This document shows positions 9,084 to 35,654 of a stretch of 64,000 bases of DNA, piece by piece (the stretch's first letter is position 1; every line of letters begins with the position of its first letter). A program made the translations under genes and the position numbers. This stretch comes from Paracoccaceae bacterium (GTDB taxonomy: Bacteria; Pseudomonadota; Alphaproteobacteria; Rhodobacterales; Rhodobacteraceae), in NCBI GenBank assembly GCA_031384695.1, contig JANNAV010000073.1, positions 4,128 to 68,127 on the forward strand, written 5' to 3'. The notes beneath the pieces were generated by a model, which was given only the letters and a program-made list of their open reading frames with translations, was not told the origin of the DNA and ran no database searches.

Positions 9084-9215
9084 CCCCCTGCATTTGGTTT
9101 AGTATTAAACCATATCACAAAGCCTGCCAATGCGTGTTCTGGTACAGGTGTTGTTCGGTCTGCTTGCAAATCATTGGTCTGATGGGCACTGTGACCCAAA
9201 GCCGGAGAAATTGCC

Positions 9216-10301: not shown

Positions 10302-10370
10302 GCGCACTTGCACATCCGGCGGCAAAGCCGCTAACTTCCGGACCAGATTGTCAAATTTCGTGAGGCTCCG

Positions 10371-10763
10371 ATGACGCTTTTGCATGCCGCAACCGACGTG
10401 CGCCTGCGCGCCTATGCCCCCTATTCGCGCTTCAAGGTGGGGGCCGCGATCCGCGCGGCTTCGGGCGCGGTTTATGCCGGGTGCAACGTGGAAAACGTGG
10501 CTTATCCCGAAGGCACCTGCGCCGAGGCGGGGGCGATTGCCGCGATGGTCGCGGGCGGTGACACGGTGATTGCCGAGGTTTGCGTGATCGCCGACAGCCC
10601 CGAGCCGGTGCCGCCCTGCGGCGGCTGCAGGCAGAAGATTTCCGAGTTTGCGGCGCAGGATGTGGTGGTAACGCTTTGCACCACCAGTGGAAAATCAAAA
10701 TCCATGACAGTGGCCGAACTGCTTCCCGGCCTGTTCACTGCCGCTCATATGGGCAGTATCTGA
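10371..10763 (+). CDS. cdd: cytidine deaminase
   Basis: 130 aa containing the zinc ligand motifs CAEAGAI and PCGGCRQ. Confidence 0.93.
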   Translation: MTLLHAATDVRLRAYAPYSRFKVGAAIRAASGAVYAGCNVENVAYPEGTCAEAGAIAAMVAGGDTVIAEVCVIADSPEPVPPCGGCRQKISEFAAQDVVVTLCTTSGKSKSMTVAELLPGLFTAAHMGSI

Positions 10764-12070
10764 TGGATGCGCGCAGCATCATCGCGCGCATCCGCGATGG
10801 CACACCACTTGCGCCTGAGGAGTTGCACTGGTTTGCGGCGGGTCTTGCCTCGGGGGCGGTCAGCGATGCGCAGGCGGGGGCGTTTGCGATGGCGGTGCTG
10901 CTGAAGGGGCTTGGCGAGGGCGGCACCGTGGCCTTGACGCGGGCGATGCGGGATTCGGGGCAGGTGCTGGAGTGGGATATGCCGGGGCCGGTGCTGGACA
11001 AGCATTCGACCGGCGGGGTGGGCGATTGTGTGTCGTTGCTGCTGGCCCCGGCGCTGGCGGCCTGCGGCGCTTATGTGCCGATGATTTCGGGGCGGGGGCT
11101 GGCGCATACCGGTGGCACGCTGGACAAGCTGGAGGCCATTCCGGGCTTTCGCACCGCGATGACGGCCGAGCAGTTGCGCCGCCAGATGAAGGAGGTGCGC
11201 TGTGCCATCGTGGCGGCCAACGCCGATATTGCGCCCGCCGACAAGCGGCTTTACGCGGTGCGCGATGTGACGGGCACGGTAGAAAGCATTGATCTGATCA
11301 CCGCGTCGATCCTTTCCAAAAAACTGGCGGCGGGGTTGGAAGCCCTTGTACTGGATGTGAAATGCGGCTCTGGCGCGTTCATGAAAACGCTGGAGGAGGC
11401 CACGGTTCTGGCCAAGGTTCTGGTGGCCACGGCGCAAGGCGCGGGCTGCATGACCAGTGCGCTGATCACCGATATGAGCCAGCCTTTGGCCACGGCGGTG
11501 GGCAATGCTTTGGAGGTGACGGAGGTGATGGAGACGCTGACCGGCACTTCGGTGAATGCGGCGCTTTGGGATATCACCATGGCGTTGGGGGGCGAGGCTT
11601 TGGCGCTGGGCGGGTTGGCCGCAGACCCTGCCGACGGGGCCGGGCGGATTGCCGAGGCGCTGGAATCGGGGGCGGCGGCGGATTGGTTTGGCCGGATGAT
11701 TGCGGCGCAAGGCGGGCCCGCCGATTTTGTCGACCGCTGGCCCGATCGTTTGCCTGCGGCGACAGTGATCCGCGAGGTGCCGAACCTTGCTACGGGCTAT
11801 GTGGCGCGCATCGACGGGCAGGTTTTGGGGCAGGCGGTGGTGCATCTGGGGGGCGGGCGCTTGCGCGAGGGCGACCGGGTGAACCCGTCGGTGGGGCTTT
11901 CCGATCTTGCGGGGATCGGCGAGGATATTGGTGCGGGTGATACCTTGGCCATGGTGCATGCGCCGTCCGAGGCCTTGGCGGAAGTGGCGATCCGGGCGGT
12001 GCAGGCGGCCTATACCATGGGCGAAGCGGCCCCTGCCGACCCGGTTCTGATCCTGAAACGGATCGCGTAA
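10763..12070 (+). CDS. deoA: thymidine phosphorylase
   Basis: Track ORF 10580..12070 trimmed to the ATG at 10763, which overlaps the cdd stop (TGATG). Product starts MDARSIIARIRDGTPLAPEELHWFAAGLASGAVSDAQAGAFAMAV and contains DKHSTGGVGD. Confidence 0.95.
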   Translation: MDARSIIARIRDGTPLAPEELHWFAAGLASGAVSDAQAGAFAMAVLLKGLGEGGTVALTRAMRDSGQVLEWDMPGPVLDKHSTGGVGDCVSLLLAPALAACGAYVPMISGRGLAHTGGTLDKLEAIPGFRTAMTAEQLRRQMKEVRCAIVAANADIAPADKRLYAVRDVTGTVESIDLITASILSKKLAAGLEALVLDVKCGSGAFMKTLEEATVLAKVLVATAQGAGCMTSALITDMSQPLATAVGNALEVTEVMETLTGTSVNAALWDITMALGGEALALGGLAADPADGAGRIAEALESGAAADWFGRMIAAQGGPADFVDRWPDRLPAATVIREVPNLATGYVARIDGQVLGQAVVHLGGGRLREGDRVNPSVGLSDLAGIGEDIGAGDTLAMVHAPSEALAEVAIRAVQAAYTMGEAAPADPVLILKRIA

Positions 12071-22448: not shown

Positions 22449-23354
22449 TTAGCTGCGTTGCAGTTTCACCGGCTCGGAGCGGGCCAGTTTCAGGAAATGC
22501 GCCATGAAGGGTTTGGCGGCATCTTCGCTGCGGGTGGCGGCGTAGAGGCGTTTGGTGATGGTTTGGGGGCCGAGGGGGCGGGTGATGTAATCGGGGTTGC
22601 GGCGGACCTCGCGCAGCACCCAGTCGGGCAGCACGGCCACGCCGCGATTGGAGCCTACCAGCATCAGGATCACGGCGGTCAACTCGGCGGTGCGCTGGGC
22701 GCGGGGTTCGATCTTGGCGGGGGTCAGCAGTTCGGTGAAGATATCCAGTTTGTCGCGGGTGACGGGGTAGGTGATCAGGGTTTGATCGAGGAAATGTTCG
22801 GCCAGGATCACCGGATGCGCCGTGAGCGGGTGAGAGGCTGCGGCAAGGAAGGTGGGGTGGTAATCGAACAGCGGGTTATAGGTGATCTCGGGGATCGGCA
22901 CCGGGTTGGACGAGATCACGAGGTCCACATCTTCGCGGTTCAGCGCGGGCAGGGCATCAAAGGCGAGGCCGGCACGGATATCGACATCCACCTCGGGCCA
23001 GGCGTGGCGGAACATTTCCAGCACCGGGAACAGCCAGTCAAAACAGGCGTGGCATTCGATGGCGATGTGCAGCCGGCCGGTCTTGCCCGATTGCAGCGCG
23101 CGGAACTCATCCTCCAGCGCCGCGATTTCGGGCAGCAGGCGCTCGGCTACGCGCAGCATGCGGATGCCTGCGGAGGAAAGCCGCATCGGTTTGGAGCGGC
23201 GCACAAACAACTCCATCCCAACCTGATCTTCCAGCGATGCCACCTGATGCGACAGGGCGGACTGGGTCATGTTCATGGTTTCGGCGGCCCGCGCGAGGCC
23301 GCCCGCGTGCTGGATGGCGCGGATGGTGCGGAGATGGCGGAGTTCGATGTACAT
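22449..23354 (-). CDS. metR: LysR-family transcriptional regulator, MetR-like
   Basis: Product MYIELRHLRTIRAIQHAGGLARAAETMNMTQSALSHQVASLEDQVGMELFVRRSKPMRLSSAG...RLHIAIECHACFDWL parallels E. coli MetR. It is divergent from metF. Confidence 0.88.
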   Translation of the reverse strand: MYIELRHLRTIRAIQHAGGLARAAETMNMTQSALSHQVASLEDQVGMELFVRRSKPMRLSSAGIRMLRVAERLLPEIAALEDEFRALQSGKTGRLHIAIECHACFDWLFPVLEMFRHAWPEVDVDIRAGLAFDALPALNREDVDLVISSNPVPIPEITYNPLFDYHPTFLAAASHPLTAHPVILAEHFLDQTLITYPVTRDKLDIFTELLTPAKIEPRAQRTAELTAVILMLVGSNRGVAVLPDWVLREVRRNPDYITRPLGPQTITKRLYAATRSEDAAKPFMAHFLKLARSEPVKLQRS

Positions 23355-23389
23355 GCGGTGGCCTCATGTTGATCTTGAGAATTATGAAT

Positions 23390-23417
23390 TTGTCTCACAT
23401 ATAAAATGGTGAGACAA
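23390..23417. promoter_or_regulatory. perfect 9-bp inverted repeat in the AT-rich metR-metF divergent promoter region (candidate LysR/MetR operator)
   Basis: Sequence TTGTCTCAC-atataaaatg-GTGAGACAA. It lies in the only strongly AT-rich stretch of the 91-bp intergenic region. Confidence 0.5.
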
Positions 23418-23445
23418 GGGGGGAAGCCTGTGAGGAGCCATTGTC

Positions 23446-24336
23446 ATGACCTGTAAGACCCCGACCCGTAAAACTCTGCCGCGCGTGTCGTTCGAGTTTT
23501 TCCCGCCGCAAACGCTGGATGCGTCATTCCGGCTGTTTGAAGCGGTGCAGATGCTGGCGCCACTGGGGCCGGAGTTCGTGTCGGTGACTTACGGGGCCGG
23601 GGGTGCGACGCGCAAGCTGACGCAGGATGCGGTGGGGCTGATCGGGCGCAATTACGGGGTGAATGTTGCGGCACATCTGACCTGTGTGGACGCCAGCCGG
23701 GCCGAGACGCTGGCGGTGGCCGAGGGGTTTGCCGAAGCCGGGGTGCGCGAGATCGTGGCCCTGCGCGGCGATGCGCCGAAGGGGGCGGTGCGGTTTGCGC
23801 CTGCGCCCGACGGCTTTGCCAGTTCGGTGGAACTTGTGGAGGCGCTGGCGCGGACCGGCAAGTTCAGGATCCGGGTGGCGGCCTATGCCGAGCGGCATCC
23901 CGATGCGGCCGACGCTCTGGCTGATGTGCGCTGGCTGAAGCGCAAGATTGATGCGGGGGCATCAAGTGCGATCACCCAGTTTTTCTTTGAGGCTGAAACC
24001 TTCCTGCGGTTCCGCGATCTGTGTGTGAAAGAGGGCATCAACGCGCCGGTCATTCCGGGGATTTTGCCGGTGCAGGGCTGGGAGGGGGTCAAGCGGTTCG
24101 CGGCGCGTTGTGGGGCCTCGATCCCGGTGCGGGTGGCCGAGGGCTATGAGCGGGCAGTGCGCGACGGGCGCGAGGCGCTGATGTCTTTGGCGCAATGCGT
24201 GGGCCTGTGCGACCGGCTGGTGTCGGAAGGGGTGGAGGATCTGCATTTCTACACCCTGAACCGGCCCGGCCTCACGCGCGAGGTGGTGCGGGTATTGGGA
24301 ATCGCGCCACAGGTGGCGTTGGAAAAGGTCGCCTGA
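23446..24336 (+). CDS. metF: 5,10-methylenetetrahydrofolate reductase
   Basis: 296 aa containing VSFEFFPP, FVSVTYGAGG and RGD motifs. Confidence 0.95.
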   Translation: MTCKTPTRKTLPRVSFEFFPPQTLDASFRLFEAVQMLAPLGPEFVSVTYGAGGATRKLTQDAVGLIGRNYGVNVAAHLTCVDASRAETLAVAEGFAEAGVREIVALRGDAPKGAVRFAPAPDGFASSVELVEALARTGKFRIRVAAYAERHPDAADALADVRWLKRKIDAGASSAITQFFFEAETFLRFRDLCVKEGINAPVIPGILPVQGWEGVKRFAARCGASIPVRVAEGYERAVRDGREALMSLAQCVGLCDRLVSEGVEDLHFYTLNRPGLTREVVRVLGIAPQVALEKVA

Positions 24337-24467
24337 GCCGGCAACGTTCGTCCCTGACGGCTGGCTAGACTGTGGCGATCTGCGCGCATCCCGCCCCTCC
24401 CCACACGGTTTGGGGGGCGTGGTGCGCGCCTTTTTGTTTTTGGTTTGGCGGCGCGGGCGCCTGAAGC

Positions 24468-24511
24468 GGGGGGCTTACCAGCCCCCCAAAGCATTGGCTG
24501 GCCAATGCTTT
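24468..24511. repeat. two adjacent perfect hairpins immediately upstream of a family 1 repeat copy
   Basis: First hairpin is GGGGGGCT-tacc-AGCCCCCC (24468-24487). Second is AAAGCATTGGC-tg-GCCAATGCTTT (24488-24511). Confidence 0.85.
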
Positions 24512-24513
24512 CC

Positions 24514-24552
24514 CCCCCGGTGGATATTTGTGCAGAGAAGAAGCCGGAGCGG
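24514..24552 (+). repeat. dispersed intergenic repeat, family 1
   Basis: Sequence cccccggtggatatttgtgcagagaagaagccggagcgg. Confidence 0.75.
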
Positions 24553-24633
24553 CTGTGCGGGATTGCGCGGGATGGTTTGCCTGCGCGCGCGGATCGGCTA
24601 TGCTGGGCGGATGTTTGCAGAAGGACGCGGCGC

Positions 24634-25074
24634 GTGAAGCCCATATATGTTTTGAACGGCCCAAATCTGAACCTGCTTGGCTTGCGGCAGCCCGAGATTT
24701 ACGGGCGGGAAACGCTTGAGGATGTGGGGGCGGCGCTGGCCGATCTGGCGGAGGAGTTGGGCGTCGCGGTGCGGATGTTGCAATCCAACCACGAGGGGCA
24801 ACTGGTGGATTGGGTGCAGGAGGCGCGGGGGGCGGCCTCGGGCATCATCATCAATCCGGGGGCCTATAGCCACAGCTCGATTGCCATACTGGACGCGCTG
24901 AACGCCTATGAGGGGCCGGTGCTGGAGGTGCATATCTCGAACATCCACAAGCGCGAGGCGTTCCGGCACCATTCGTATGTGTCGGGGCGGGCGGAGGGGG
25001 TAATCGCGGGGTTTGGAGTGGAAGGCTATCTGCTGGCGCTGCGGCGGATGGCATCGCTGGTGGGCAAGGGATGA
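24634..25074 (+). CDS. aroQ: type II 3-dehydroquinate dehydratase
   Basis: GTG at 24634 within track ORF 24445..25074. Product reads (V)[23 protein letters not shown]...QSNHEG...[10 protein letters not shown]...HISNIHKRE. Confidence 0.93.
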
Positions 25075-25838
25075 TGTTGCCGGTGAATGCGTTCAAGCGG
25101 GCGCTGGCGGAGGGGCGGCCGCAGTTCGGCTTGTGGAACTCGCTGCCCGGCCCGGTGGTGGCGGAGGTGCTGGCGGGGGCGGGGTATGACTGGCTGGTGA
25201 TCGACACCGAGCATGCGCTGACCGATGTGCCCGACACCATGGCGATGATGCAGGCGATGGCGCCTTATCCGGTGTCGGTGGCGGTGCGGCCTGCGAGCAA
25301 CGATGCGGTGCTGATCAAGCGGCTGTTGGATCTGGGGGCGCAGACGCTGATCATCCCTTATGTGCAGAACGCGGCTGAGGCGCGGGCGGCGGTGGCGGCG
25401 ATGCGCTATGCGCCGCGCGGCATCCGGGGCGTTGCGGGGATGACGCGGGCCAGCCGGTTTGGCGCGGTTCAGGGCTATGTGCAGCAGGCGGAGGCGGAGT
25501 TGTGCCTGATCGTGCAGGTGGAAACCGCCGAGGCTTTGGCGCAGATCGAGGCGATTGCGGCGGTGGACGGGGTGGACGGGCTGTTCATCGGGCCTGCGGA
25601 TCTTGCCGCCTCGATGGGGCATGGCGGCAATGCGGGGCATCCTGAGGTGGTGGCTGCGATTGAGGCTGCGATCAAGCGGATTGTGGCGGCGGGCAAGCCT
25701 GCGGGGATTTTGACGCTGGACCCGGCCTTCGCGCGGGTTTGCATCGGCTGGGGCACGCGGTTTACCGCCTTGGGGATGGATATTGCGTTGCTGGCGGCAG
25801 CGGCGCGCGGGTTGGTGGCGGGGTTTCGCGGCCCGTGA
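25071..25838 (+). CDS. HpcH/HpaI-family aldolase
   Basis: 255 aa. Family motifs are [32 protein letters not shown] and QVET..A...[11 protein letters not shown]. Its start overlaps the aroQ stop (ATGATG). Confidence 0.9.
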
Positions 25839-26992
25839 GCGACGCGCGGTTTCGCTGGCACCCGGAGGCGCGGGTGATGGATGCGCGGGGGGCGCGGGTC
25901 ATGCCGGTTGCGGCAGGGCCGGTGGTGATCGACGCACTGCTTTCGGGGCGTGCTTTGGCGCAGGCGCTGGCCGCACCGGACGGGTTCCGCATTGGTGGGG
26001 CGGGGGAGGCACCGGCGCGTGGGCCGGTGCCGATGTTCGAGACGCTGACCTCGGGCTCCACCGGCGTGCCACGGCGGATATGGCGGTCGCAGGCATCCTG
26101 GACGGTGAGTTTTCAGGTGAATGCCGGGCTGTTTGGCATCGGGCCGGGGGTGCGGGTGGCCGTGCTGGGGGGGATGGTGCAATCACTCGCACTTTATGGC
26201 GCGCTGGAGGCGGTGCATCTGGGGGCGGAGTTGCATCTGCTGGACGGCATGCGACCGGACCGGCAGGTGGCGGCGTTGGCGCAGCGGCGGGTGGCGGTGA
26301 TCTATGCCACCCCGGCGCAACTGCGGCTGTTGGCGGCGGCGGGGGGTTTGGTGCCTGATCTGCGGCTGGTTCTGGTGGGAGGATCGAAGCTGGACCCGGC
26401 TTTGCGGGCGGGGTTGCGGCGGCTGTTTCCTGCGGCGGTAGTGCGTGAGTTTTACGGCGCGGCGGAGGCGAGTTTCATCACTTTGGCGGCGGAGGATAGC
26501 CCTTTGGAGTCTGTGGGCCGGGCCTATCCGGGGGTGGAGATTGCGCTGCGCGCGGGGGCGGTCTGGGTGCGCAGCCCGTATTTGTTTGCGGGGTATGGTG
26601 GCGGCGAGGCGGGGGCCGTCTGGGACGAGGATTGGCTTTCGGTGGGCGAGATGGGGCGGCTTGAGGCGGGCAATCTGTACCTTTCGGGCCGGGCGGGGCG
26701 GATGGTGACGGTGGCCGATCAGAACGTGTTTCCCGAGGGGATCGAGGCGTTCATGGCAGGGTTGCCGGGGGTGCGGCAGGTGGCGGTGATCCCGGGTGCC
26801 GATCCGTTGCGGGGGGTGGTGATGGTGGCGGTGGTGCTGGGAGACGTGGCGCAGGAGGCGGCGATACTGGCGGCCACGCGGCGGCAGTTCGGGGCGCTTG
26901 CGGCACCGCGCGCGGTGATCTGGCGCGAGGGCTGGCCGGTGCTGGCTTCGGGGAAAACCGATCTGCTGGCCATCGCGCGTGACGCGGGATGA
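25835..26992 (+). CDS. short adenylate-forming (AMP-dependent synthetase/ligase family) enzyme
   Basis: GTG at 25835 overlaps the aldolase stop (GTGA). The AMP motif TSGSTGVPRRI sits only about 75 aa from the N-terminus. Later motifs are EFYGAAE and SGKTD. At about 385 aa it is shorter than typical acyl-CoA ligases. Confidence 0.75.
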   Translation: MSDARFRWHPEARVMDARGARVMPVAAGPVVIDALLSGRALAQALAAPDGFRIGGAGEAPARGPVPMFETLTSGSTGVPRRIWRSQASWTVSFQVNAGLFGIGPGVRVAVLGGMVQSLALYGALEAVHLGAELHLLDGMRPDRQVAALAQRRVAVIYATPAQLRLLAAAGGLVPDLRLVLVGGSKLDPALRAGLRRLFPAAVVREFYGAAEASFITLAAEDSPLESVGRAYPGVEIALRAGAVWVRSPYLFAGYGGGEAGAVWDEDWLSVGEMGRLEAGNLYLSGRAGRMVTVADQNVFPEGIEAFMAGLPGVRQVAVIPGADPLRGVVMVAVVLGDVAQEAAILAATRRQFGALAAPRAVIWREGWPVLASGKTDLLAIARDAG

Positions 26993-28071
26993 GCGCGGTG
27001 GTGGTGGCCGCGCGGCGGACGGCAGTGGTGCCGCGGGGGGGGGCGTTTGCGGCGCTGTCGATTGAAGATATGGCGGCGTCGGTGGTGGCGGCCTTGCTGG
27101 CGGATGCGGGGATAGCGCCGGAGCGGGTGGACGAAGTGATTGTGTCCAATGCTTTGGGCGCAGGCGGCAACCCCGCGCGGCGGGTGGCGTTGGCGGCAGG
27201 GCTGCCCTTGGCGGTGGCGGGGCTTTCGGTAGACCGGCAATGCGCGGGGGGCTTGGACGCGGTGCTGCTGGCGCGGGCTTTGGTGGAAAGCGGGGCGGCG
27301 GAGGTGGTGATTGCGGGCGGGGTGGAGAGCTATTCGCGCCGGCCGGTACGCTTTGCGGCTGGTGCGGCGGTGGCCTACGATCAGCCGCCGTTCACGCCCT
27401 GGCCCGGGCGTGATCCGGGGATGGCGCAGGCGGCGGAGGCTTTGGCGCGGCGGTTGGGGATATCGCGGGCGGCGGCGGATGCTTGGGCGGTTTTGAGCCA
27501 TGGGCGGGCATTGGGTTTGGGTTCGACAGGCGAGATTGTTGAGGTGGCGGCGCAAGTGCGTGATCCGTTTGCGCGGGCACTGACGGCGGCGGTGGCGGGG
27601 CGGGCCAAGGTGGTGGTGGGAGGGATCACGGCGGCCAATGCGGCGGTGGCGGCGGATGCGGCGGCGTTTGTGCTGGTGGTATCGGCGCGGGTGGCGGCGG
27701 GGTTGCCGGGCGTGCGGGGCATGCGGATTGTGGGCGGCGCGACGCTGGGGGGTGACCCGGAAGAGCCGGGACTGGCACCGGTGGCGGCGATTGCGGCGGT
27801 GCTGGCGCGGGCCGGTGTGCCGGCGGATGAGTTGGCGGTGAGCGAAATCATGGAGGCCTATGCGGTGCAGGCGATGGCTTGTGTGGCGGCGGCGGGGCTT
27901 GATCCGGGGCGGGTGAATATCGGTGGCGGCGCGCTGGCACGGGGGCATCCGATTGGTGCCTCGGGCGCGGTGCTGGCGGTGCGGCTGTTCTGGCAGTTGC
28001 AGGCGGGCTACGGGCTGGCCGCGATTGCGGCGGCGGGGGGGATCGGCACGGCGTTGTTGGTGGAGCGGTAG
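26989..28071 (+). CDS. thiolase-family acetyl-CoA C-acyltransferase
   Basis: 360 aa containing VDRQCAGGLDAV (active-site Cys), GGVESYS, GGALARGHPIGASG and AIAAAGGIG. Its start overlaps the ligase stop (ATGA). Confidence 0.9.
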   Translation: MSAVVVAARRTAVVPRGGAFAALSIEDMAASVVAALLADAGIAPERVDEVIVSNALGAGGNPARRVALAAGLPLAVAGLSVDRQCAGGLDAVLLARALVESGAAEVVIAGGVESYSRRPVRFAAGAAVAYDQPPFTPWPGRDPGMAQAAEALARRLGISRAAADAWAVLSHGRALGLGSTGEIVEVAAQVRDPFARALTAAVAGRAKVVVGGITAANAAVAADAAAFVLVVSARVAAGLPGVRGMRIVGGATLGGDPEEPGLAPVAAIAAVLARAGVPADELAVSEIMEAYAVQAMACVAAAGLDPGRVNIGGGALARGHPIGASGAVLAVRLFWQLQAGYGLAAIAAAGGIGTALLVER

Positions 28072-28073
28072 AT

Positions 28074-28901
28074 TCAGTATTTGCCTGCCACATAAAAGAA
28101 GAAACTTTTCAGAAACTGCTCGTAGGTCAGGCCGCCGATGCGGGGCAGGGTGGTTTCCGAGCCCCAGGTGAAGATCGGGATGCTGATGCGGCTGTCGCGC
28201 CGGGTGGGAATATCGAAATCGCCACGGATCACAACGACATGGTCTGGCGACGGGCTGTCTTTGAAGGAGGAATCGATGATTGACGCCTCTATCCCGATGA
28301 CAATCCGGTAATTCTTGCCAACCAGTTCCTTGCATTTGGCGAGGAACTTTTCGCGGTCTTTCAGGCTGTCGAGCGCGCCGCCGTAAGAGAAGAAAGAGCA
28401 GCCCTGACTCTGGATGTCGGTGAACTGTGCCTTTGCCATCCATGCCTCGATTTCAGACATGGTTGTGCCGTCGCTGTCGTCTTTGTCGGAATGGTAATCG
28501 TACCACCAGTTCTCGGAATCGCGGATGCTGGCGAGGATGATCCAATCCACATGTTCGAAGGCTTCGACGACGGTGCCTGCGGTGTCTTTGATGCCTGCAG
28601 GGCAGGGCATCGTCAGGAGTTCGGCATCGGGTTTCAGCTTCCATTTGCGGATGCTGGCCTCGCCGGTTTCAAACAGGCTGGTGACGGCGGTGGCGTAAAG
28701 CAGCGGTTGTGACTGGGCGATGGCAAACAGGATCGACGCCGGGCCGCAGACCCCGGCGCTGGTCTGATTGATCTTGTAGGGGTTGTTAATGCGGATGCGC
28801 AGGCCGGCGGCGATTTTGGCGCGATCCAGTTTGGTGAATTTCCCGGCAGTGCTGCGGGCTGCGAAATCATCGACGTGTTTCAGGGCGAGGTCTTTGGTCA
28901 T
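28074..28901 (-). CDS. orphan low-G+C hypothetical protein with a putative papain-fold/UCH-like cysteine peptidase signature
   Basis: 275-aa ORF. Hand-counted 100-nt samples give 52-54% G+C, against 72% in the adjacent thiolase. The motif NQTSAGVCGPASILFAIA (Gln46-x5-Cys52-Gly) is followed later by SPDHVVVIRGDFD (His221, Asp228/230). I see no signal peptide or transmembrane segment. The functional call rests on motifs only. Confidence 0.6.
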   Translation of the reverse strand: MTKDLALKHVDDFAARSTAGKFTKLDRAKIAAGLRIRINNPYKINQTSAGVCGPASILFAIAQSQPLLYATAVTSLFETGEASIRKWKLKPDAELLTMPCPAGIKDTAGTVVEAFEHVDWIILASIRDSENWWYDYHSDKDDSDGTTMSEIEAWMAKAQFTDIQSQGCSFFSYGGALDSLKDREKFLAKCKELVGKNYRIVIGIEASIIDSSFKDSPSPDHVVVIRGDFDIPTRRDSRISIPIFTWGSETTLPRIGGLTYEQFLKSFFFYVAGKY

Positions 28902-28971
28902 GGGCCTTATCCTTACAATACAGGAAACCGGCGGGCAAAGGGCCGGATGAAAACATCACGCTATGGCGCCG

Positions 28972-29056
28972 GGCGCAAATTTCAAAATACCGATAGCAAA
29001 AGACGTCGATGGGCAACACGGGCCACGTGCAAAAGCTACTCCGAGGCGCAAATTTC
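28972..29056. repeat. 12-bp direct repeat ggcgcaaatttc x2 in the upstream region of the orphan gene
   Basis: Exact copies lie at 28972-28983 and 29045-29056. On the gene strand they read GAAATTTGCGCC. Confidence 0.9.
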
Positions 29057-29097
29057 CTCAAGCGGAAGTTTTGAGCGCGCCCCGGGATGCCCTTCGG

Positions 29098-29640
29098 TCA
29101 GCGGCGCGACAGCAGGGCTGCGGGGCGGGCGGCGGCGATGGTTTGGGTGATCAGGCCCGCGAGGACCGCCTTGATGGTGTCGCCGATCATGTAGGGGGCG
29201 GCGAGGAGGGCGGCCTCAGGCAGGGTTTTGTCCAGCATCACCGACATGCCGACAACGCCAAAGCCGTTCAGCAGCACGAGGCCACCCAGAAACGCGCCTA
29301 TGGTGGAAGCCAGCCCGATGTTGGCGCGCAGGTGGGTGGTGATGGCGCCAGCCACAAAGGCCGCGACCGGGAAGCCGATCAGATAGCCGATGGTCGGCGA
29401 GGCCAAGAGGCCAAAGCCGCCGCGCCCGCCCGCCAGCAGCGGCAGACCGCAGAGCGTGAGGAACAGGAACAGCAGCACCGCCGCCGCACCATTGCGCGCG
29501 CCCAGCACCGTGCCGCACAGCATGATGCCCAAGGATTGCGCGGTGATCGGCACGCCCGAGGCGAGGTCGATCTTCGGCACCAGCCCGAGAACGGCGATCA
29601 AGGCGGCGAAAAGTGCGATATGGGTGAGGTTCTTTTCCAT
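29098..29640 (-). CDS. bioY: biotin transporter S-component BioY
   Basis: Product MEKNLTHIALFAALIAVLGLVPKI...VPITAQSLGIMLCG...GGRGG...IGYLIGFP. The ATG at 29640 has a GGAG 6 nt upstream. The track ORF extends to a GTG at 29658. Confidence 0.92.
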   Translation of the reverse strand: MEKNLTHIALFAALIAVLGLVPKIDLASGVPITAQSLGIMLCGTVLGARNGAAAVLLFLFLTLCGLPLLAGGRGGFGLLASPTIGYLIGFPVAAFVAGAITTHLRANIGLASTIGAFLGGLVLLNGFGVVGMSVMLDKTLPEAALLAAPYMIGDTIKAVLAGLITQTIAAARPAALLSRR

Positions 29641-29664
29641 GGTGGTCTCCCTGTTCACCGGCCA

Positions 29665-30264
29665 TTAACCAGTTCCGCCACGGGCGCGCAATGCCTCGGC
29701 GGTGTTTTCGGCATCATCAAGGGCGGCGAGGGTTGCGGGCATCAGGATGCGCCAGCCGGGGCGGCGGGGCGAGCGGGCGCGCCAGGCGTGGCGCAGCGTG
29801 GTCATCCGTTCCAGCATCACCGGGATGAAGCGGATGGTGAGGGCGATGGCAAGGGCGAAGGTGCGGGGGTTGAGGCCGAGGCGGGCGAGGGGGCGCGCCG
29901 CGCGTTGCAGGGTGGCGATCATGTCGGCAAGCCGGGTGGTCATGGTCACGAAATTGGCGGCAGCGACGGCGGCGAGCATGCGGAGCACAATGGCCGCACC
30001 TTCGCCGGGGGCGCGGGTGACGAGGTGCCAGAGGGCCACGATGACGATGAAGGGCAGCAAGGGGCGCAGCATGTGCAGCGAGGCGCGGGCAAAGCTGTGG
30101 CCGCCGGTGGCGATGATGGCGGCGACAAGGGTTACGGCGGCGGCGAGGGCAAGCGGCGATTTCAGGGCGAACAGCAGCACCGTGGTGGCGGTGAGGGCGC
30201 CAAGTTTTGCCCCCGCAGGCAGGCGGTGTGCCCAGGTTTCAACCGGCGAGGTGAGTGTCAGCAT
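29665..30264 (-). CDS. bioN: ECF transporter T-component (BioN/CbiQ family)
   Basis: Track ORF trimmed to the ATG at 30264 (MLTLTSPVETWAHRLPAGAKLGALT...). The ARG-type C-terminal motifs of the family are present (AWRARS, EALRARG). Confidence 0.85.
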   Translation of the reverse strand: MLTLTSPVETWAHRLPAGAKLGALTATTVLLFALKSPLALAAAVTLVAAIIATGGHSFARASLHMLRPLLPFIVIVALWHLVTRAPGEGAAIVLRMLAAVAAANFVTMTTRLADMIATLQRAARPLARLGLNPRTFALAIALTIRFIPVMLERMTTLRHAWRARSPRRPGWRILMPATLAALDDAENTAEALRARGGTG

Positions 30265-30961
30265 CCTGCTCTCCCAACCTTGCCATCTCGGCGGTGAAGG
30301 CTTTGATGGTGGCGGCGGCAGGGCCGTCGGCGCGGATGTGGCCTGCATCAAGCCACAGCACGCGGTCGGCCAGCGCCACTGCGGCGGGCGCATGGGTGAT
30401 GGTGATCAGCCGTTGCGGCAGGGCGGCAAGGCGGCGGGAGAGGCGGGCTTTGGTCGGCAGATCGAGGCCCGCGAAAGGCTCGTCCAGCAGGATGGTGCCG
30501 GGGTTCATCAAGAGGACCGCCAGCAGGCAGAGGTAGTGGCGCTGGCCTTGGGAAAGGGTGTGGGTGGGCGCTTTGGCCCAATGGCTGCGGGACTCTGTGG
30601 CCAGCAGGGTTTGCACGGCGGCGGCGGGGTTGGGGTGGCCTTGCTGGATCAGACCGAAGGCAAGCTCCTCTTCCACCGTGGGGAACAGGATCTGGTGATC
30701 GGGGTTCTGAAACAGGATGCCGAGCTGCGCCAGCAGCGCCTTGCGGTCTTGCGCGGGGTTGAGGCCGTTGATCTGCACGCTGCCGGTGGAGGGCGGGGTG
30801 AGCCCGGCGATCAGGCGCAGAAGCGTGGTTTTGCCCGAGCCGTTGCGGCCGATGATGCCGATGCGGGCTTCGGTGAGGGTGAGGCTCAGGGGGTGCAGGA
30901 TGGTTTTGCCGGAGAGGGTGACGCTGGCGTTGATAAGGTTGATGCCGGGGGCGTCGCGCAT
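30239..30961 (-). CDS. bioM: ECF transporter ATPase (BioM)
   Basis: Walker A is GRNGSGKTT, the signature is LSQGQR, and Walker B is ILLDEP. It overlaps bioN by 26 nt. Confidence 0.9.
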   Translation of the reverse strand: MRDAPGINLINASVTLSGKTILHPLSLTLTEARIGIIGRNGSGKTTLLRLIAGLTPPSTGSVQINGLNPAQDRKALLAQLGILFQNPDHQILFPTVEEELAFGLIQQGHPNPAAAVQTLLATESRSHWAKAPTHTLSQGQRHYLCLLAVLLMNPGTILLDEPFAGLDLPTKARLSRRLAALPQRLITITHAPAAVALADRVLWLDAGHIRADGPAAATIKAFTAEMARLGEQDADTHLAG

Positions 30962-30972
30962 GGGGGATCCTT

Positions 30973-31018
30973 TCCGCTGGCAAGGCTTCTAGCGCTCCGC
31001 TGGCAAGGCTTCTAGCGC
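30973..31018. repeat. perfect 23-bp tandem duplication immediately upstream of bioM
   Basis: The unit tccgctggcaaggcttctagcgc occurs twice head-to-tail (30973-30995 and 30996-31018). The array ends 12 nt from the bioM start codon. Confidence 0.95.
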
Positions 31019-31171
31019 GCAGCGGGGGAAGGTGCAAATGCGGGGGCCTACGCGGCACTTTTGCGGCCGGGATCATGAAAATGCCGGGCATCCTTTGGGG
31101 ACGCCCGGCTGATGCTGCGGCTGTGGTCCGGTGCTTGCAGCGGACCGGTTGTGCCTTAAAGCGTGTTACGT

Positions 31172-31193
31172 CCAATCGGGTTCAACCGATTGG
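31172..31193. repeat. perfect 8-bp inverted repeat
   Basis: Sequence CCAATCGG-gttcaa-CCGATTGG. Confidence 0.9.
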
Positions 31194-31229
31194 GCGCGAC
31201 ACGCAACATTCCCAAGCCGGTCTTGTCCT

Positions 31230-31266
31230 GGATTTCCTTCAATCTGAATCAGATTGAAGGAAATCC
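31230..31266. repeat. 37-nt perfect palindrome (18-bp arms) just downstream of the lipoprotein gene stop
   Basis: Sequence ggatttccttcaatctga-a-tcagattgaaggaaatcc. It lies 3 nt from the stop codon at 31270-31272 and has no U-tract. Confidence 0.95.
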
Positions 31267-31269
31267 GCT

Positions 31270-31530
31270 CTAGCAATCGTCGGTATAGGTCTGGCCGTTC
31301 GAGTTGCGATAGTAGCACTGGCCGCGCTGGGGGGCGGGACCGATCAGGGTGGAGGCGGCGACGCCGACAGCAGCCCCGATCAATGCGCCCTGCACGCGGT
31401 TTGAGGGTTTCGAGACCGCAGCCCCCAGAACCGCCCCGCCAAGCGCGCCTGCGGCGGTATTCTGGTCGGTGGTCTGGCAGGCCGAGAGCGACAGGGCGAT
31501 TACCGGCAGGATAAGGAAAAATTTGGTCAT
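31270..31530 (-). CDS. small glycine-zipper lipoprotein
   Basis: Signal peptide with lipobox MTKFFLILPVIALSLSAC. The glycine-zipper region is GALGGAVLGAAV...GALIGAAVGVAA. Confidence 0.75.
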   Translation of the reverse strand: MTKFFLILPVIALSLSACQTTDQNTAAGALGGAVLGAAVSKPSNRVQGALIGAAVGVAASTLIGPAPQRGQCYYRNSNGQTYTDDC

Positions 31531-31632
31531 GGCAGCCTCGATTCGGTTTGAGGGGGTGAGGGAGTGAGCGGGTTACGAGGGGACAACGCGTGGCGGCAGG
31601 AATGGTTCCGCAAGGCGGCGGAACAACTTGCG

Positions 31633-32868
31633 TTACGCGGTGCGCCGGATGGTGCGGTTGAGGCCGAGAAACAGGCCGATGGCGCCTATCAGGGCGGCGC
31701 AGGGCATGGCGATGCCGAAGCCCTGCGCATCGGCCAAAAGGCCCACTCCCAGAACCGAGATCGCGCCCGCCGCGCGGGCCAGCATCAGGTTGTTGCCCAG
31801 AACCCGGCTTCGCATGTGTTCGGGGGTGCGGTTCTGCAAGATGATGTTGTTGCCTGTCACGACATAGCTGCAGCCAAACCCCAGCAAGAACAGGCAGGCG
31901 ATAGCGAGTGTGGTGGCACCCGGAAACACGCTGAGCGCCGGAAAGAGCAACCCATCAAGCAGCATCACCGCGACAAGCACCCGCAGCGTCGCGCGTTCCT
32001 GCCCGTGACCCGAATTGCGCCTTGCATGAACCAGACCTGCGAACAGCCCGCCCGCCATCAGACTGGCGGTCAGCAGGGTGAAATATGCGGGCGAGAACAG
32101 CGAGAAGCGGTCGTTGATCGCGGGCATCATGCTTGTCAGCGGCCTTTGCATCACCGCCACCACGAGGACGAAGAGACTGGCACGAAAGACCACCGGGTTG
32201 GTCCAGAACACGGTGAGGCCAGCGACAACCTCGGGCAACAGTGCGGGGGCGTCGGTTGCCTCTTTCGGCGGCTGCGGGTGCAAGGTGATACCACTGAGGC
32301 ACCACAGATACCCCAGCGTTCCCAATGCGTTGGCAGCAAAAGCCAAAGGCGCGATGCCCAGCCCGAAGGAAAACAGCATCCCTGCCAGCAATGGCCCCAG
32401 AATATAGCTGATCTGCACCACGCTGACATTGACGGCAACCGCCGCAGACAGGTTCTGCTGGCTGACAAGCCGGTTCAGAAGTCCAAAGAACGCAGGCTGG
32501 CCAAAGCCCACGAGCGTACCCTCGACGAGGGCAAATCCTGCCAGCATGGCAGGGGTCAGCGCACCTGATGCCGCAACCGCTGAGAGCGTCAACCCGGTGC
32601 AGACCTGCAACCACAAGACCGATTTGAGGATGCGGAGCCTGTCGCCACGATCGGCAAAGGCCGCAGCGAACGGGGTGACGAGGATGGACGGGAACAGATC
32701 GCAGAAATAAGCGATGCCGACCCAGGTTGCGGACGCGGTTGTCTGCCACATCCACCAGCCAATCGACAGCAGCGTGATCCAGTAGAAGACATAGGATATC
32801 CCGTAGCCGGTGACAAACCGCAGATATGCGGGTTCGCGGAGCACGCCGAATCCATCCCTGAGCCGCAT
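31633..32868 (-). CDS. MFS transporter
   Basis: 411 aa with about 12 hydrophobic helices. An MFS loop-like motif (FADRGDR) follows TM2. Confidence 0.85.
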   Translation of the reverse strand: MRLRDGFGVLREPAYLRFVTGYGISYVFYWITLLSIGWWMWQTTASATWVGIAYFCDLFPSILVTPFAAAFADRGDRLRILKSVLWLQVCTGLTLSAVAASGALTPAMLAGFALVEGTLVGFGQPAFFGLLNRLVSQQNLSAAVAVNVSVVQISYILGPLLAGMLFSFGLGIAPLAFAANALGTLGYLWCLSGITLHPQPPKEATDAPALLPEVVAGLTVFWTNPVVFRASLFVLVVAVMQRPLTSMMPAINDRFSLFSPAYFTLLTASLMAGGLFAGLVHARRNSGHGQERATLRVLVAVMLLDGLLFPALSVFPGATTLAIACLFLLGFGCSYVVTGNNIILQNRTPEHMRSRVLGNNLMLARAAGAISVLGVGLLADAQGFGIAMPCAALIGAIGLFLGLNRTIRRTA

Positions 32869-32976
32869 TCAGCACTTTCTTTCTTCGCGCGCTGGCCCGA
32901 CCGTTTTGGCGGGCCGGGCCTTGCGCCTGTGCAGGCCCGGCGGTTTGGGTGAGTTTAGTCGGGGTGAACCCCCGAC

Positions 32977-34251
32977 CTACGTGCGGGCCGCCGCCACGGC
33001 TGCCTCAAGAATATCCATCGCTTCGGCGAAGTGGGCGTCGGGGATGGTGATGGGGGCGAGGAAGCGGATGACGTTGCCGTAGACGCCGCAGGTGAGCAGG
33101 ATCAGGCCGCGCTTTTGCGCCTCGGCGCGGACGCGGGTGGTGAAGCCTGCGTCGGGCTCGTGCGTGCCTGGGTTGGCGAATTCGACCGCCACCATGAAGC
33201 CGGGGCCGCGGATGTCTGCGATCTCGGGGGCGGTGGAGCGGATCGCCTCCAGACGCTGTTTCAGGCGGCTGCCAAGTTCGTTGGCGCGGTCGCAAAGCGC
33301 CTCGTCTTCGATTACGTCGAGCACAGCGTTGGCCGCCGCGATGCCCAGGGGGTTGCCGCCATAGGTGCCGCCAAGCCCGCCGGGGTGGGCCGCGTCCATC
33401 AGGCTGGCGCGGCCGGTAAGGGCGGCGAGGGGCAGGCCTCCGGCGAGGCCCTTGGCCATGGTGGTGATGTCGGCGGCGATGCCGTAGCCTTCCATCGCGA
33501 ACATGTGGCCGGTGCGGGCAAAGCCGGTCTGCACCTCGTCGGCGATCATCACGATGCCATGCTCGTCGCAAAGTTTGCGGATGGCGCGGACAAGGTCTTT
33601 GGGGGCGGGATAAAAGCCGCCCTCGCCCTGCACCGGCTCGAAGATGATGGCCGCGACCCGGGCGGGATCAAGATCGGCCTTGAACAGTTTGGTGATGCCG
33701 TCCATCGCGTGGGCGGTGGTGACGCCGTGGATCTCTTGCGGGAAGGGGACGTGGTAGATATCGGGCATCATGGCGCCGAAACCCTTCTTGTAGGGCTCCA
33801 CCTTGCCAGTGAGCGACATGCCGAGGAAGGTGCGGCCGTGAAAGGCGCCGCCGAAGGCAATCACCGCGTTGCGCCCGGTGGCGATGCGGGCGACTTTGAC
33901 GGCGTTTTCGATGGCCTCGGCGCCGGTGGTGACGAAGACGGTTTTCTTCGGCCAATCGCCGGGGACGGCGGCGTTCAGGCGCTCGGCCAGGCGGACGTAA
34001 TTCTCGTAAGGCAGCACCTGATGGCAGGTGTGGGTGAAGCGCGACATCTGTTCGGTGACGGCGGCCATCACGCGCGGGTGGCAGTGGCCGGTGTTCACCA
34101 CCGCGATGCCGGCGGCGAAATCAATGTAGCGGTTGCCCTCGATATCCCAGACCTCGGAATTGACCGCGCGGTCCACATAGATCTGGGTCATCACCCCGAT
34201 GCCACGCGAGATCGAGGCATCACGGCGGCTGGCGACTTCGGCGTTTTTCAT
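32977..34251 (-). CDS. gabT: 4-aminobutyrate aminotransferase (class III PLP aminotransferase)
   Basis: ATG at 34251 (MKNAEVASRRDASISRGIG...). Long collinear similarity to E. coli GabT as I remember it: DFAAGIAVVNTGHCHP, TTGAEAIENAVK, AFGGAFHGRT, EPVQGEGGF, IADEVQTGFARTG, TMAKGLAGG. Confidence 0.9.
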   Translation of the reverse strand: MKNAEVASRRDASISRGIGVMTQIYVDRAVNSEVWDIEGNRYIDFAAGIAVVNTGHCHPRVMAAVTEQMSRFTHTCHQVLPYENYVRLAERLNAAVPGDWPKKTVFVTTGAEAIENAVKVARIATGRNAVIAFGGAFHGRTFLGMSLTGKVEPYKKGFGAMMPDIYHVPFPQEIHGVTTAHAMDGITKLFKADLDPARVAAIIFEPVQGEGGFYPAPKDLVRAIRKLCDEHGIVMIADEVQTGFARTGHMFAMEGYGIAADITTMAKGLAGGLPLAALTGRASLMDAAHPGGLGGTYGGNPLGIAAANAVLDVIEDEALCDRANELGSRLKQRLEAIRSTAPEIADIRGPGFMVAVEFANPGTHEPDAGFTTRVRAEAQKRGLILLTCGVYGNVIRFLAPITIPDAHFAEAMDILEAAVAAART

Positions 34252-34322
34252 CGGTTTGGTCCTTCGGGTGGTTTGGAGGTATTTGATCAAATTTCGATGC
34301 CGGTTTCAATGGCAAAGGTGGG

Positions 34323-34364
34323 GCCTCCGGCGGGGATATTTGGCCAGAGAAGAATGCGGGGGCG
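34323..34364 (+). repeat. dispersed intergenic repeat, family 1
   Basis: Sequence gcctccggcggggatatttggccagagaagaatgcgggggcg is near-identical over the first 25 nt to the copy at 47122. Confidence 0.85.
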
Positions 34365-34422
34365 TTGGAGAGGATTCATCAGCGGTTAACCTTATCCGGG
34401 TCTGATCGGGAATCAGGGGTGG

Positions 34423-35571
34423 GTGAGGTTGGCGATGGGGTTGAGATTGGTGGCGGCTGAGGCGGAGGATCCGGCGGATTGGTTGCGGCTGATCCGGTCG
34501 CGGCGGGTGGGGGCGGTAACGTTTCACCGGTTGCTGGCGGAACATGGCTCGGCCGCAGCGGCGCTGGCGGCTTTGCCAGAGATTGCGCGGGCGAGCGGGG
34601 TGGAGAATTACACGATTTGCCCTGAGGCGGTGGTGCGGGCGGAGATGGCGCTGGCGCGGGTGGCGGGGGCGGTGATGCTGCGCTGGGGCGAGCCTGGGTA
34701 TCCGGCGTTGCTGCGCGAGGTGGCGGATGCGCCGCCGGTGCTTTGGGTGCAGGGCGATCCGGGGCTGCTCGGCCGGCCGATGGTGGCAATGGTGGGCGCG
34801 CGCAACGCCTCGTCGTTGGGGGTGCGGATGGCGCGGCGGCTGGCGGAAGGCCTGGGGGCTGCGGGGATGGTGGTGGTGTCGGGTCTGGCGCGCGGCATTG
34901 ATGCCGAGGCGCACCGGGCGGCGCTGGCCACGGGAACGGTTGCGGTGCAGGCGGGCGGCGTCGATGTGATCTATCCGGCCGAGAACACCGAGCTTGCGGG
35001 CGAGATTCTGGCGGCGGGCTGCCGGATATCGGAGCAGCCGATGGGCATGCCGCCGCAGGCGCGGCATTTTCCGCTGCGCAACCGGATCGTGTCGGGGGTG
35101 GCGCGGGCGGTGCTGGTGGTGGAGGCGGCTGCGCGATCGGGGAGTTTGATCACGGCGCGCAATGCTCTCGATCAGGGGCGCGAGGTGATGGCGGTGCCGG
35201 GGCATCCTTGTGATGCACGGGCCGCCGGATGCAATATGCTGATCCGCGATGGGGCGACGCTGATCCGGGGGGCGGGCGATGTGATGGAGGCGCTGGGGAT
35301 CACCGGGTTCGCACCGGAGCAGGCGGTGTTTGCCGGGAGGGAGGCGGCCGATCCGGCACCGCCGCCGCCACGGCCACCGCGGGCGCTTGCCGATATCTCG
35401 GCGGTGCACAGCCAGATACTGGCGCGATTGGGGCCGAGTCCCCTTGCGGAGGACCAGTTGATCCGGGATCTGGCCTTGCCGCCGTCGTTGCTTGCGGGGG
35501 CGCTGATCGCGTTGGAACTGGAGGGACGGGTGCTGCGGCAGGCGGGAGGGCTGCTGAGCCGGGTGGAGTGA
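34423..35571 (+). CDS. dprA: DNA-processing protein DprA (Smf)
   Basis: Family motifs are VAMVGARNAS, VVSGLARGIDAEAHRAAL, GGVDVIYPAEN, FPLRNRI and EAAARSGSLITA. The start is uncertain (GTG at 34423 or ATG at 34435). Confidence 0.9.
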   Translation: MRLAMGLRLVAAEAEDPADWLRLIRSRRVGAVTFHRLLAEHGSAAAALAALPEIARASGVENYTICPEAVVRAEMALARVAGAVMLRWGEPGYPALLREVADAPPVLWVQGDPGLLGRPMVAMVGARNASSLGVRMARRLAEGLGAAGMVVVSGLARGIDAEAHRAALATGTVAVQAGGVDVIYPAENTELAGEILAAGCRISEQPMGMPPQARHFPLRNRIVSGVARAVLVVEAAARSGSLITARNALDQGREVMAVPGHPCDARAAGCNMLIRDGATLIRGAGDVMEALGITGFAPEQAVFAGREAADPAPPPPRPPRALADISAVHSQILARLGPSPLAEDQLIRDLALPPSLLAGALIALELEGRVLRQAGGLLSRVE

Positions 35572-35654
35572 GGTGACACGCTCCATTGACAAGGGGGCAT
35601 GTTCGCCCGCATCTTGCCGCGCCGCCCGTTGGGGCGGCAGGCAGTGAGGGTTAC

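Follow-up and report, generated by a model that had tools for sequence, protein, structure and literature searches.

The stretch of DNA analysed here, a window of 64,000 nucleotides from a Paracoccaceae bacterium (contig JANNAV010000073.1), carries an open reading frame (ORF) for a protein of 275 residues at 28074-28901 on the reverse strand, lying between a thiolase gene (26989-28071, forward strand) and bioY (29098-29658, reverse strand) of the energy-coupling factor transporter genes bioMNY. The ORF listing and synteny place both flanking genes in a conserved backbone. The ORF converges on the thiolase gene with 2 nt between the two stops, the thiolase ORF ending at 28071 and the 275-residue ORF at 28074, as a preliminary description of the locus had already stated, and it has the same orientation as bioY, which is positioned upstream; the range 28074-29097 consists of this ORF and the 196-bp region upstream of it (28902-29097). 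We describe the product as a stand-alone member of an unannotated family of putative Cys-His hydrolases with a papain-type (clan CA) fold, some of whose relatives in other phyla are encoded beside components of contractile injection systems.

The gene, its upstream region and its insertion site

Every homologue aligns from Met1 of the window protein, which supports the assigned start codon. Compared with an orthologue 92% identical in sequence (locus L051), the ORF has a ratio of non-synonymous to synonymous substitution rates (dN/dS) of 0.12 at a dS of 0.36, against 0.07 for bioY in the same two lineages, and because of this low ratio it is, on its substitution pattern, a real, functional gene maintained by purifying selection in two lineages. 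It evolves faster than bioY nonetheless, the amino acid identities to the second lineage being 92% for the window protein and 97% for BioY. The protein has no N-terminus resembling a signal peptide and no hydrophobic segment of transmembrane (TM) length, its maximum 19-residue hydropathy being 1.27, in agreement with what had been read from the sequence beforehand.

The upstream region (28902-29097, taken on the reverse strand like the gene) is 196 bp long with 56% G+C and forms part of the inserted segment described below. An AAGGA element resembling a Shine-Dalgarno sequence stands ahead of the ATG in the upstream sequence TAAGGATAAGGCCC, of which the portion AAGGATAAGGC is kept in orthologue L051. 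Further upstream the 12-mer GGCGCAAATTTC, whose exact repetition had been pointed out earlier, occurs at 28972-28983 (71-82 nt upstream of the ATG) and at 29045-29056 (144-155 nt upstream), both on the forward strand, and nowhere else in the 64 kb. The pair is only partially conserved in the orthologous upstream region of L051 (L051 623-796), which is itself 22 nt shorter, and a regulatory role for it is possible but unsupported. We found no sigma-70-like promoter within 28902-29097 and no terminator at the end of the ORF. A TTG-initiated ORF of 64 codons (28867-29061, reverse strand) overlaps the start of the 275-residue ORF and is probably spurious.

The preliminary description had suggested that the ORF was acquired horizontally, and that the thiolase-bioY junction be compared among related Rhodobacterales. 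That comparison delimits a lineage-specific segment of 1,026 bp (28072-29097, thiolase stop to bioY stop), which is missing from the closest syntenic relatives (L042-L046), where the stops of thiolase and bioY are 76 or 20 nt apart, and present in L039 and L051. Relatives whose BioY is 79-83% identical have the gene order of the window, in which genes for LysR, MTHFR, AroQ, an AMP-ligase and the thiolase converge on those for BioY, EcfT and EcfA, followed by an aminotransferase, DprA and TopA. When the DNA is aligned with these relatives, homology stops at the thiolase stop and restarts at the bioY stop, and a BLAST synteny map finds in them no counterpart of 28072-29097; the inserted unit is exactly the ORF and its own 196-bp upstream region. 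Relative to the nearest available relatives the gene is thus best read as acquired, because the site is empty in the closest syntenic genomes and the family is spread patchily across phyla. It is not a very recent arrival, since a second lineage, with BioY 97% and the window protein 92% identical, carries the gene at the same position. The absence of an integrase, insertion sequence or tRNA gene had also been reported correctly: there is no tRNA gene in the 64-kb window, and the synteny with relatives over 22454-37441 leaves no room for an integrase or insertion sequence nearby. No convincing repeats flank the segment 28072-29097.

In more distant Rhodobacterales replicons, from Alloyangia, Thioclava and Pseudosulfitobacter, the slot between thiolase and bioY is filled by a nitroreductase gene, for example at 4073-4753 of L040 and 4076-4753 of L041 (plasmids or chromids of Alloyangia pacifica and Thioclava). 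The junction appears to be a recurrent variable slot, since it holds a nitroreductase in these distant replicons and is empty in closer relatives. Two further inserts lie near by. One, lineage-specific and in the same backbone at 25071-25838 (forward strand), is an ORF of 255 residues resembling HpcH/HpaI-type aldolases between aroQ and the AMP-ligase gene; in L042 and L045 aroQ is directly beside the ligase gene and the aldolase-like ORF is missing. The other, which makes a third insert within 10 kb, is a segment of ~2.1 kb between bioM and the aminotransferase gene (30885-32982), also missing from L042 and L045, with an ORF of 86 residues for a Gly/Ala-rich lipoprotein-like product (31270-31530, reverse strand) and one of 411 residues for a multi-pass membrane protein (31633-32868, reverse strand; 62% G+C, 0.77 G+C at third codon positions) that reads as similar to transporters of the major facilitator superfamily.

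The gene had been described as the sharpest compositional break in the window, and the dip itself is real: the ORF has 57.0% G+C against 64.9% for the whole window, and the window's lowest 828-nt stretch (56.3%) lies within it. The 52-54% counted by hand at the time represents local minima, not the mean of the ORF, in which 200-nt values range over 53-61%. By codon position, G+C is 0.53 at first, 0.44 at second and 0.75 at third positions, the last compared with 0.77-0.87 in neighbouring genes, and in 20 of 22 loci, whose hosts differ widely, the family gene is poorer in G+C than the DNA on either side. The dip largely reflects the amino acid composition of the protein, with a modest third-position deficit, since the third-position value is close to that of the neighbours and the family is G+C-poor in nearly all of these loci.

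Predicted papain-type fold and catalytic residues

An AlphaFold2 model of the window protein (pLDDT, the predicted local distance difference test, 88.6; predicted template modelling score 0.86) was compared with the PDB using Foldseek. Calpain cores were the top matches (probability 0.96-0.99, E from 2e-3, template modelling score, hereafter TM-score, 0.40), with papain-fold proteins, cathepsins, bleomycin hydrolase and ZUP1 among the others. A second, independent model was made for P0070, a member linked to a type VI secretion system (T6SS) and 33% identical to the window protein (pLDDT 94.8), and this retrieved Pd_dinase, staphopains, IdeS/Mac-1, calpain cores (TM-score up to 0.42), cathepsin B and CtaG. 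A library of viral structures gave weak matches of AvrRpt2-like, calpain-family and C1A type. Sequence comparison gave far less: the window protein has no match in Pfam, NCBIfam, PADLOC or the PDB sequences, PHROGs returned a single non-significant match (E=0.016) to an entry without annotated function, and a broad family profile run against PDB sequences found chance-level matches only (an acid phosphatase and a Pumilio protein). A single member among 149 has a marginal match to Peptidase_C39_2 (E=7e-4), and hhalign of the family profile with papain, using a papain sequence identical to 1KHP in the PDB, reached a probability of 0.2 and did not map the catalytic residues. The earlier papain-like reading is supported, as both models retrieve mostly papain-fold enzymes of clan CA, and on the ground that two independent models do so the assignment at the level of the clan is robust, with no solved structure close.

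Conservation was counted over 148 diverse representatives of the family, and bears out the signature of Gln, Cys and His that had been picked out from the sequence. The segment INQTSAGVCGPASILFAIA begins at residue 44 and includes Gln46 and Cys52, while SPDHVVVIRGDFD begins at residue 218 and includes His221. Cys52 (codon 28746-28748, on the reverse strand like all those that follow), the predicted nucleophile, is invariant (148/148) and is the first residue of model helix 52-64; in P0070 the equivalent Cys55 likewise opens a helix (55-67). Gln46 (28764-28766), the candidate oxyanion-hole residue, is Gln in 140/148 and otherwise Ser or Thr. Its Q-x5-C spacing to Cys52 is that of Gln19 and Cys25 in papain. 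His221 (28239-28241), the predicted general base, is His in 147/147 and the first residue of model strand 221-225, and Cys precedes His in the sequence, as in clan CA. The Asp that had been proposed to follow His221 fared less well: the Asp residues of the RGDFD stretch are absent from the conserved columns.

After model strand 241-245 comes F-T-W-G (residues 244-247, 28161-28172), in which the first position is Phe, Tyr or Trp in 140/148 representatives, the second Thr or Ser in 145/148, Trp246 is conserved in 141/148 and Gly247 in 136/148. Papain has N-S-W-G and calpain N-P-W-G in what is the counterpart of this motif, so an aromatic residue stands at the position of the triad Asn, two residues ahead of the conserved Trp, where clan CA enzymes have Asn or Asp. 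A second strongly conserved element is the helix DWIILASIRDSENW (residues 119-132, 28506-28547; model helix 117-130), with Asp119 in 143/148, Trp120 in 144/148, Ser125 in 141/148, Arg127 in 147/148, Asp128 in 133/148 and Asn131 in 135/148. This signature helix may provide a residue for substrate binding or the third one of the catalytic centre, and Asp119, Asp128, Asn131 or the Asn/Asp at position 220 could substitute as the third residue. Taken together, the models and the conserved positions make a papain-type fold with a Cys-His catalytic dyad very probable.

The calpain core (MEROPS C2), together with papain, cathepsins and staphopains, provides the best structural matches of both models (probability up to 0.99, TM-score 0.40-0.42), and the likeness extends to a two-part core of ~250 residues, the Q-x5-C spacing, a Cys at a helix N-terminus, a His at a strand start and an x-[ST]-W-G motif after the next strand. 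The differences are a lack of profile similarity, Phe, Tyr or Trp at the Asn position and the invariant helix DWxxLASxRDSENW of the family; unlike calpains, its members have no Ca-binding or C2-like domains, pro-peptide or signal peptide, and are bacterial and found in injection-system contexts. Membership of the calpain family was rejected, since PF00648 matches 0/149 members and the Asn position is aromatic, leaving a resemblance at the level of the fold. A Pfam- and PDB-based classification of papain-like proteinases (PMC10318531) would group the structural neighbours found here with papain, cathepsins, calpains and staphopains; no Pfam family catalogued there is matched by the family itself.

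Family spread, injection-system neighbours and a secreted partner

A word-indexed search returned 11 homologues only. With an exhaustive profile search the family comprises 1,984 representative clusters at E<=1e-3 and 1,379 at E<=1e-10, and a scan of species-representative genomes places members in Alphaproteobacteria, Acidobacteriota, Planctomycetota, Myxococcota and Gemmatimonadota, with further members in Bacteroidota, Verrucomicrobiota, Chloroflexota, Paenibacillus and Actinomycetes. Most hosts live free in soil or water, the distribution is phyletically patchy and the genomic context differs in every lineage. Among named carriers, Reyranella sp. CPCC 100927 has a stand-alone member (L020). 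In 68 of the 148 representatives the domain lies C-terminal to an extension of more than 15 residues, and none of the 59 extensions of at least 30 residues contains a signal peptide or TM segment, as expected for export by a route other than Sec. These extensions mostly lack a Pfam match, and NCBIfam was blank for two members that carry them. One member of 149, P0140, has an extracellular contractile injection system domain, eCIS_core (formerly DUF4157), at 181-256 and the family domain at 377-627. Modules that bind the cell wall were found in a few others (LysM in two members, PG_binding_1 in one), with weaker signals below threshold elsewhere.

Two kinds of N-terminal region recur. At least a dozen representatives (P0046, P0047, P0057, P0077, P0084, P0093, P0100 and others, and the members at L007 and L016) have a module of ~90 residues before the domain, exemplified by LSHSEVVxIIRxxLxxGxVSxxELxDLxxVAxxSxSIPxRS, which has no Pfam match in L007, L016, P0047 or P0093, is often preceded by a PG_binding-like module in longer forms and may be a loading or targeting domain. 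Giant proteins of ~800-1,350 residues from Paenibacillus, Actinomycetes and Chloroflexia (L023 and L025-L034, for example L027 6743-10684 from Paenibacillus baekrokdamisoli KCTC 33723) end in a divergent copy of the domain after a Gly/Ser-rich linker. Their conserved N-terminal ~1,000 residues are matched by neither Pfam nor NCBIfam and show no obvious signal peptide, and these proteins may be carriers of the polymorphic-toxin type in Gram-positive bacteria.

Several relatives lie among genes for injection-system components. In L049 a co-oriented series of genes for PAAR, an FHA/DUF4123 adaptor and VgrG is followed, after a gap of 9 nt, by the stand-alone member P0070 of 262 residues, with DUF2169 nearby; a Pfam-confirmed VgrG lies within 2.6 kb of the family gene in L010 and at 57 nt in L018, and a PAAR gene lies ~1 kb upstream in L015. 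For genes this rare, an association in 4 of ~35 independent loci is far more than would be expected (binomial P=4e-4 at a background of 1%, 5e-3 at 2%). No neighbour is conserved across all family loci in an all-versus-all BLAST based on crude ORF calls.

Targeted tblastn and hidden Markov model searches of the loci revealed a second association, with a secreted partner of ~275 residues whose homologues abut the family gene in eight loci. In six, from Acidobacteriota, the partner gene lies upstream and its stop codon overlaps the start codon of the family gene; in two, from Myxococcales, it lies downstream. The pair in L010 occupies 9006-9818 and 9821-10789. The partner has a signal peptide ending in A-x-A before N-L-R-A-P, four invariant Cys residues and no curated or solved relative in the PDB, NCBIfam or other curated families. 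Type VI effectors active in the periplasm, such as Tae in the Tae/Tai pairs, are likewise enzymes without a signal peptide encoded beside a secreted immunity protein, and the partner found here would most simply be a periplasmic immunity protein. In L018 two tandem partner paralogues (4653-5447 and 5466-6245) lie directly downstream of the family gene, the VgrG gene being on the opposite strand, 57 nt upstream; immunity genes are often duplicated in tandem. In L001, L009 and L047-L050 the unannotated neighbours are unrelated in sequence to the partner, and proteins with signal peptides adjoin the members at these loci no more often than by chance. A different setting is seen in L019 (779-9003, Myxococcales), where co-oriented genes encode a protein kinase-nSTAND1 NTPase, a DUF3185-like protein, a protein of 474 residues, an FHA protein, a family member of 566 residues and the partner; such a setting is of signalling or conflict type and unlike the VgrG islands.

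Among known systems, the Tae1-4/Tai pairs are similar in that Tae enzymes are signal-less Cys-His T6SS cargo of the papain superfamily, as the family has VgrG and PAAR neighbours, an abutting secreted partner and, in a few members, peptidoglycan-binding modules. They differ in size (~250 residues in the family, ~150 in Tae), and the partner is unrelated to any curated family. Assignment to the Tae, NlpC/P60 or CHAP groups was rejected: there is no match to NLPC_P60, CHAP, Amidase_6 or DUF2272, and the top 50 structures include neither Tae/Tse1 nor NlpC/P60, the sole CHAP lysin among the PDB structural matches being at rank 30 with a TM-score of 0.16. Cpe1, which acts with the immunity protein Cpi1, is a C39-like, papain-like protease toxin of T6SS and contact-dependent inhibition systems with a Cys-His-Asp triad, carried as a fusion by PAAR, VgrG, Rhs or CdiA proteins; its closest structural homologues are ComA and LahT, superposed over ~120 C-alpha atoms, and it attacks GyrB/ParE in the cytoplasm and is bound at an exosite by its immunity protein (PMC12136450). 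The likeness here lies in a papain-like cysteine protease toxin domain and in the one marginal Peptidase_C39_2 match, whereas the family described here is twice as large, mostly stand-alone and paired with a secreted partner, and neither ComA nor LahT is in the top 50. Cpe1, being C39-like, was rejected as a member of the same family, as were Tce1/Tce2 (PMC13323088), which resemble the TcdB cysteine protease domain and have His before Cys. Toxins of extracellular contractile injection systems have an N-terminal DUF4157, a linker and a C-terminal toxin (Geller et al. 2021, PMC8213781), which is the layout of P0140, though of that one member in 149 only. The literature searched on extracellular contractile injection systems, including PMC8213781, makes no mention of a papain-like or calpain-like toxin, and a literature search found no work combining 'calpain-like' with type VI secretion. 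On the evidence of these loci, we think it likely that the family serves as injection-system cargo somewhere.

An orphan of an effector-like family or a cellular enzyme

The explanation we propose has a soluble Cys-His hydrolase of ~250 residues with a papain-type (clan CA) fold, in which Cys52 would be the nucleophile, His221 the general base and Gln46 part of the oxyanion hole, the third triad position being non-canonical. Several phyla would use the family as a payload of contractile injection systems, as cargo encoded beside VgrG, PAAR and DUF4123 and once as a fusion to the eCIS core, with the abutting secreted protein, of disulfide type, acting as periplasmic immunity protein. The target may lie in the cell envelope, as a peptidoglycan peptide or an envelope protein, because of the pairing with a secreted partner and the occasional fusions to LysM and PG_binding_1; it is the least certain part of the proposal. 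The window copy, inserted together with the region upstream of it and kept by purifying selection, belongs to an alphaproteobacterial subclade of orphans; it could be exported by a distant system and act as a toxin. For the window copy a toxin role is an extrapolation from relatives, and we put its export at somewhat below an even chance. As a whole, the proposal of a papain-fold Cys-His hydrolase from an effector-like family, of which this copy is an inserted orphan, is one we hold to be evenly balanced between right and wrong.

A number of observations weigh against it. The structural matches are weak (E>=2e-3, TM-score<=0.42) and have no counterpart in sequence profiles, neither in the libraries named above nor in the hhalign comparison with papain. 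The alphaproteobacterial relatives, of which P0002-P0007 and L006 are 41-54% identical to the window protein, are all stand-alone and lie without a partner among housekeeping genes, and both they and the window protein have 30-35% identity to members linked to a T6SS or to the partner, among which identities are 31-58%. Homologues of VgrG, PAAR, DUF4123, DUF2169 and the partner are missing from the 64 kb of the window, as is another member of the family, and no secretion genes were seen on three further long contigs. As 80 of the 148 representatives also lack an N-terminal extension, the effector role may be limited to a subclade. The immunity function of the partner is read from its position and export signal only. 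Finally, the nearest folds are papain, calpain and staphopain proteases, the NlpC/P60/CHAP/Tae group being missing from the top 50 but for the CHAP lysin at rank 30; since known peptidoglycan amidases of the papain fold belong to that group, the idea of a peptidoglycan amidase is weakened. The features of T6SS cargo, a spike or adaptor gene as neighbour and an adjacent immunity gene, are seen in family loci and are absent from the window copy, which also has no fusion to eCIS_core (DUF4157). Two suggestions of the preliminary description can be judged on this basis. That no partner gene is visible holds for the window, and not for the family, members of which elsewhere adjoin a conserved secreted partner or lie near VgrG or PAAR genes; and the suggestion of a toxin module gains indirect support from these neighbours in relatives, the 64 kb itself having no partner or secretion genes.

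The main alternative, which we regard as possible though clearly less probable than the orphan of an effector-like family, is a cytoplasmic cysteine peptidase, amidase or transglutaminase-type enzyme that was acquired horizontally and works alone in a regulatory or metabolic role, the injection-system association being a specialisation of another subclade. Such an enzyme would need no immunity gene and would account for a stand-alone protein without signal peptide or N-terminal loading domain, maintained by purifying selection in two lineages among housekeeping neighbours, both in the window and in every close homologue, and intracellular enzymes are present among its fold neighbours (calpains, bleomycin hydrolase and the biosynthetic papain-like CtaG). 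It accords less well with the patchy, insertion-like spread and new context in each lineage, which are more typical of conflict genes, with a rate of evolution above that of bioY, or with a domain that is fused to eCIS_core and adjoins VgrG or PAAR in four phylum-level lineages. A link to conflict of another kind, in which the family would provide the effector protease of an anti-phage or intracellular conflict system, controlled for example by a STAND NTPase, with the window copy again an orphan, would draw on this same patchy distribution in variable slots and on the clustering in L019 of the 566-residue member with a protein kinase-nSTAND1 NTPase and an FHA protein. That STAND context is a single locus, which also carries the secreted partner, PADLOC was blank and most loci have no defence genes, so that we consider this explanation improbable.

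About as improbable is an anti-eukaryotic effector of deubiquitinase type, related to the ubiquitin C-terminal hydrolases (UCH) or otherwise. In its favour are the Q-x5-C-G box, whose likeness to that of UCH enzymes the preliminary description had noted in raising a deubiquitinase-like enzyme, and the conserved His. A eukaryotic target would suit the missing immunity gene, and Foldseek gave weak matches to ZUP1 (rank 25, E 0.29) and a Parachlamydia deubiquitinase (ranks 35 and 38, E 0.14). The top 50 of both PDB searches nevertheless contain no UCH (C12), OTU or USP structure, no Pfam deubiquitinase family, C12 included, is matched, the secreted bacterial partner and the fusions to modules that bind bacterial cell walls indicate targets in the bacterial envelope, and most hosts are free-living in soil and water. 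Those same wall-binding modules, N-terminal LysM or PG_binding_1 in some relatives, occur in many endolysins, which together with the missing signal peptide, weak structural matches to virion wall hydrolases of the phi29 type and the marginal PHROG match could point to a phage-derived, endolysin-like cell-wall hydrolase. We rate this as the least probable of the explanations considered: none of the ~35 loci examined has a prophage or holin context, the PHROG match (E=0.016) is non-significant and has no annotated function, and the fold neighbours are other than CHAP or NlpC/P60 lysins.

A bolder form of the effector proposal can also be put forward, though we think it rather unlikely to hold in full. 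The family would then be an unrecognised superfamily of T6SS and occasional eCIS effectors with a calpain-like papain fold, in which the helix DWxxLASxRDSENW replaces the Asn, the target lies in the envelope and a secreted, disulfide-bonded family confers immunity; orphans such as the window protein would be functional cargo delivered in trans by a secretion locus elsewhere, or domesticated copies with a cellular role.

Bacterial toxins have arisen repeatedly from papain-fold enzymes, and the family described here, with ~2,000 representative clusters in many phyla, is annotated as 'hypothetical protein' only and has no counterpart in Pfam, NCBIfam or the PDB. If the relation between effector and immunity protein is true, the type VI and eCIS repertoire would gain one new family of enzymes and one of immunity proteins, in large part from poorly studied soil phyla (Acidobacteriota, Myxococcota and Planctomycetota), and the papain superfamily would gain a catalytic centre of an unusual kind. 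For the genome from which the window comes, the gene represents a clean, datable insertion of an orphan enzyme into a conserved chromosomal backbone.

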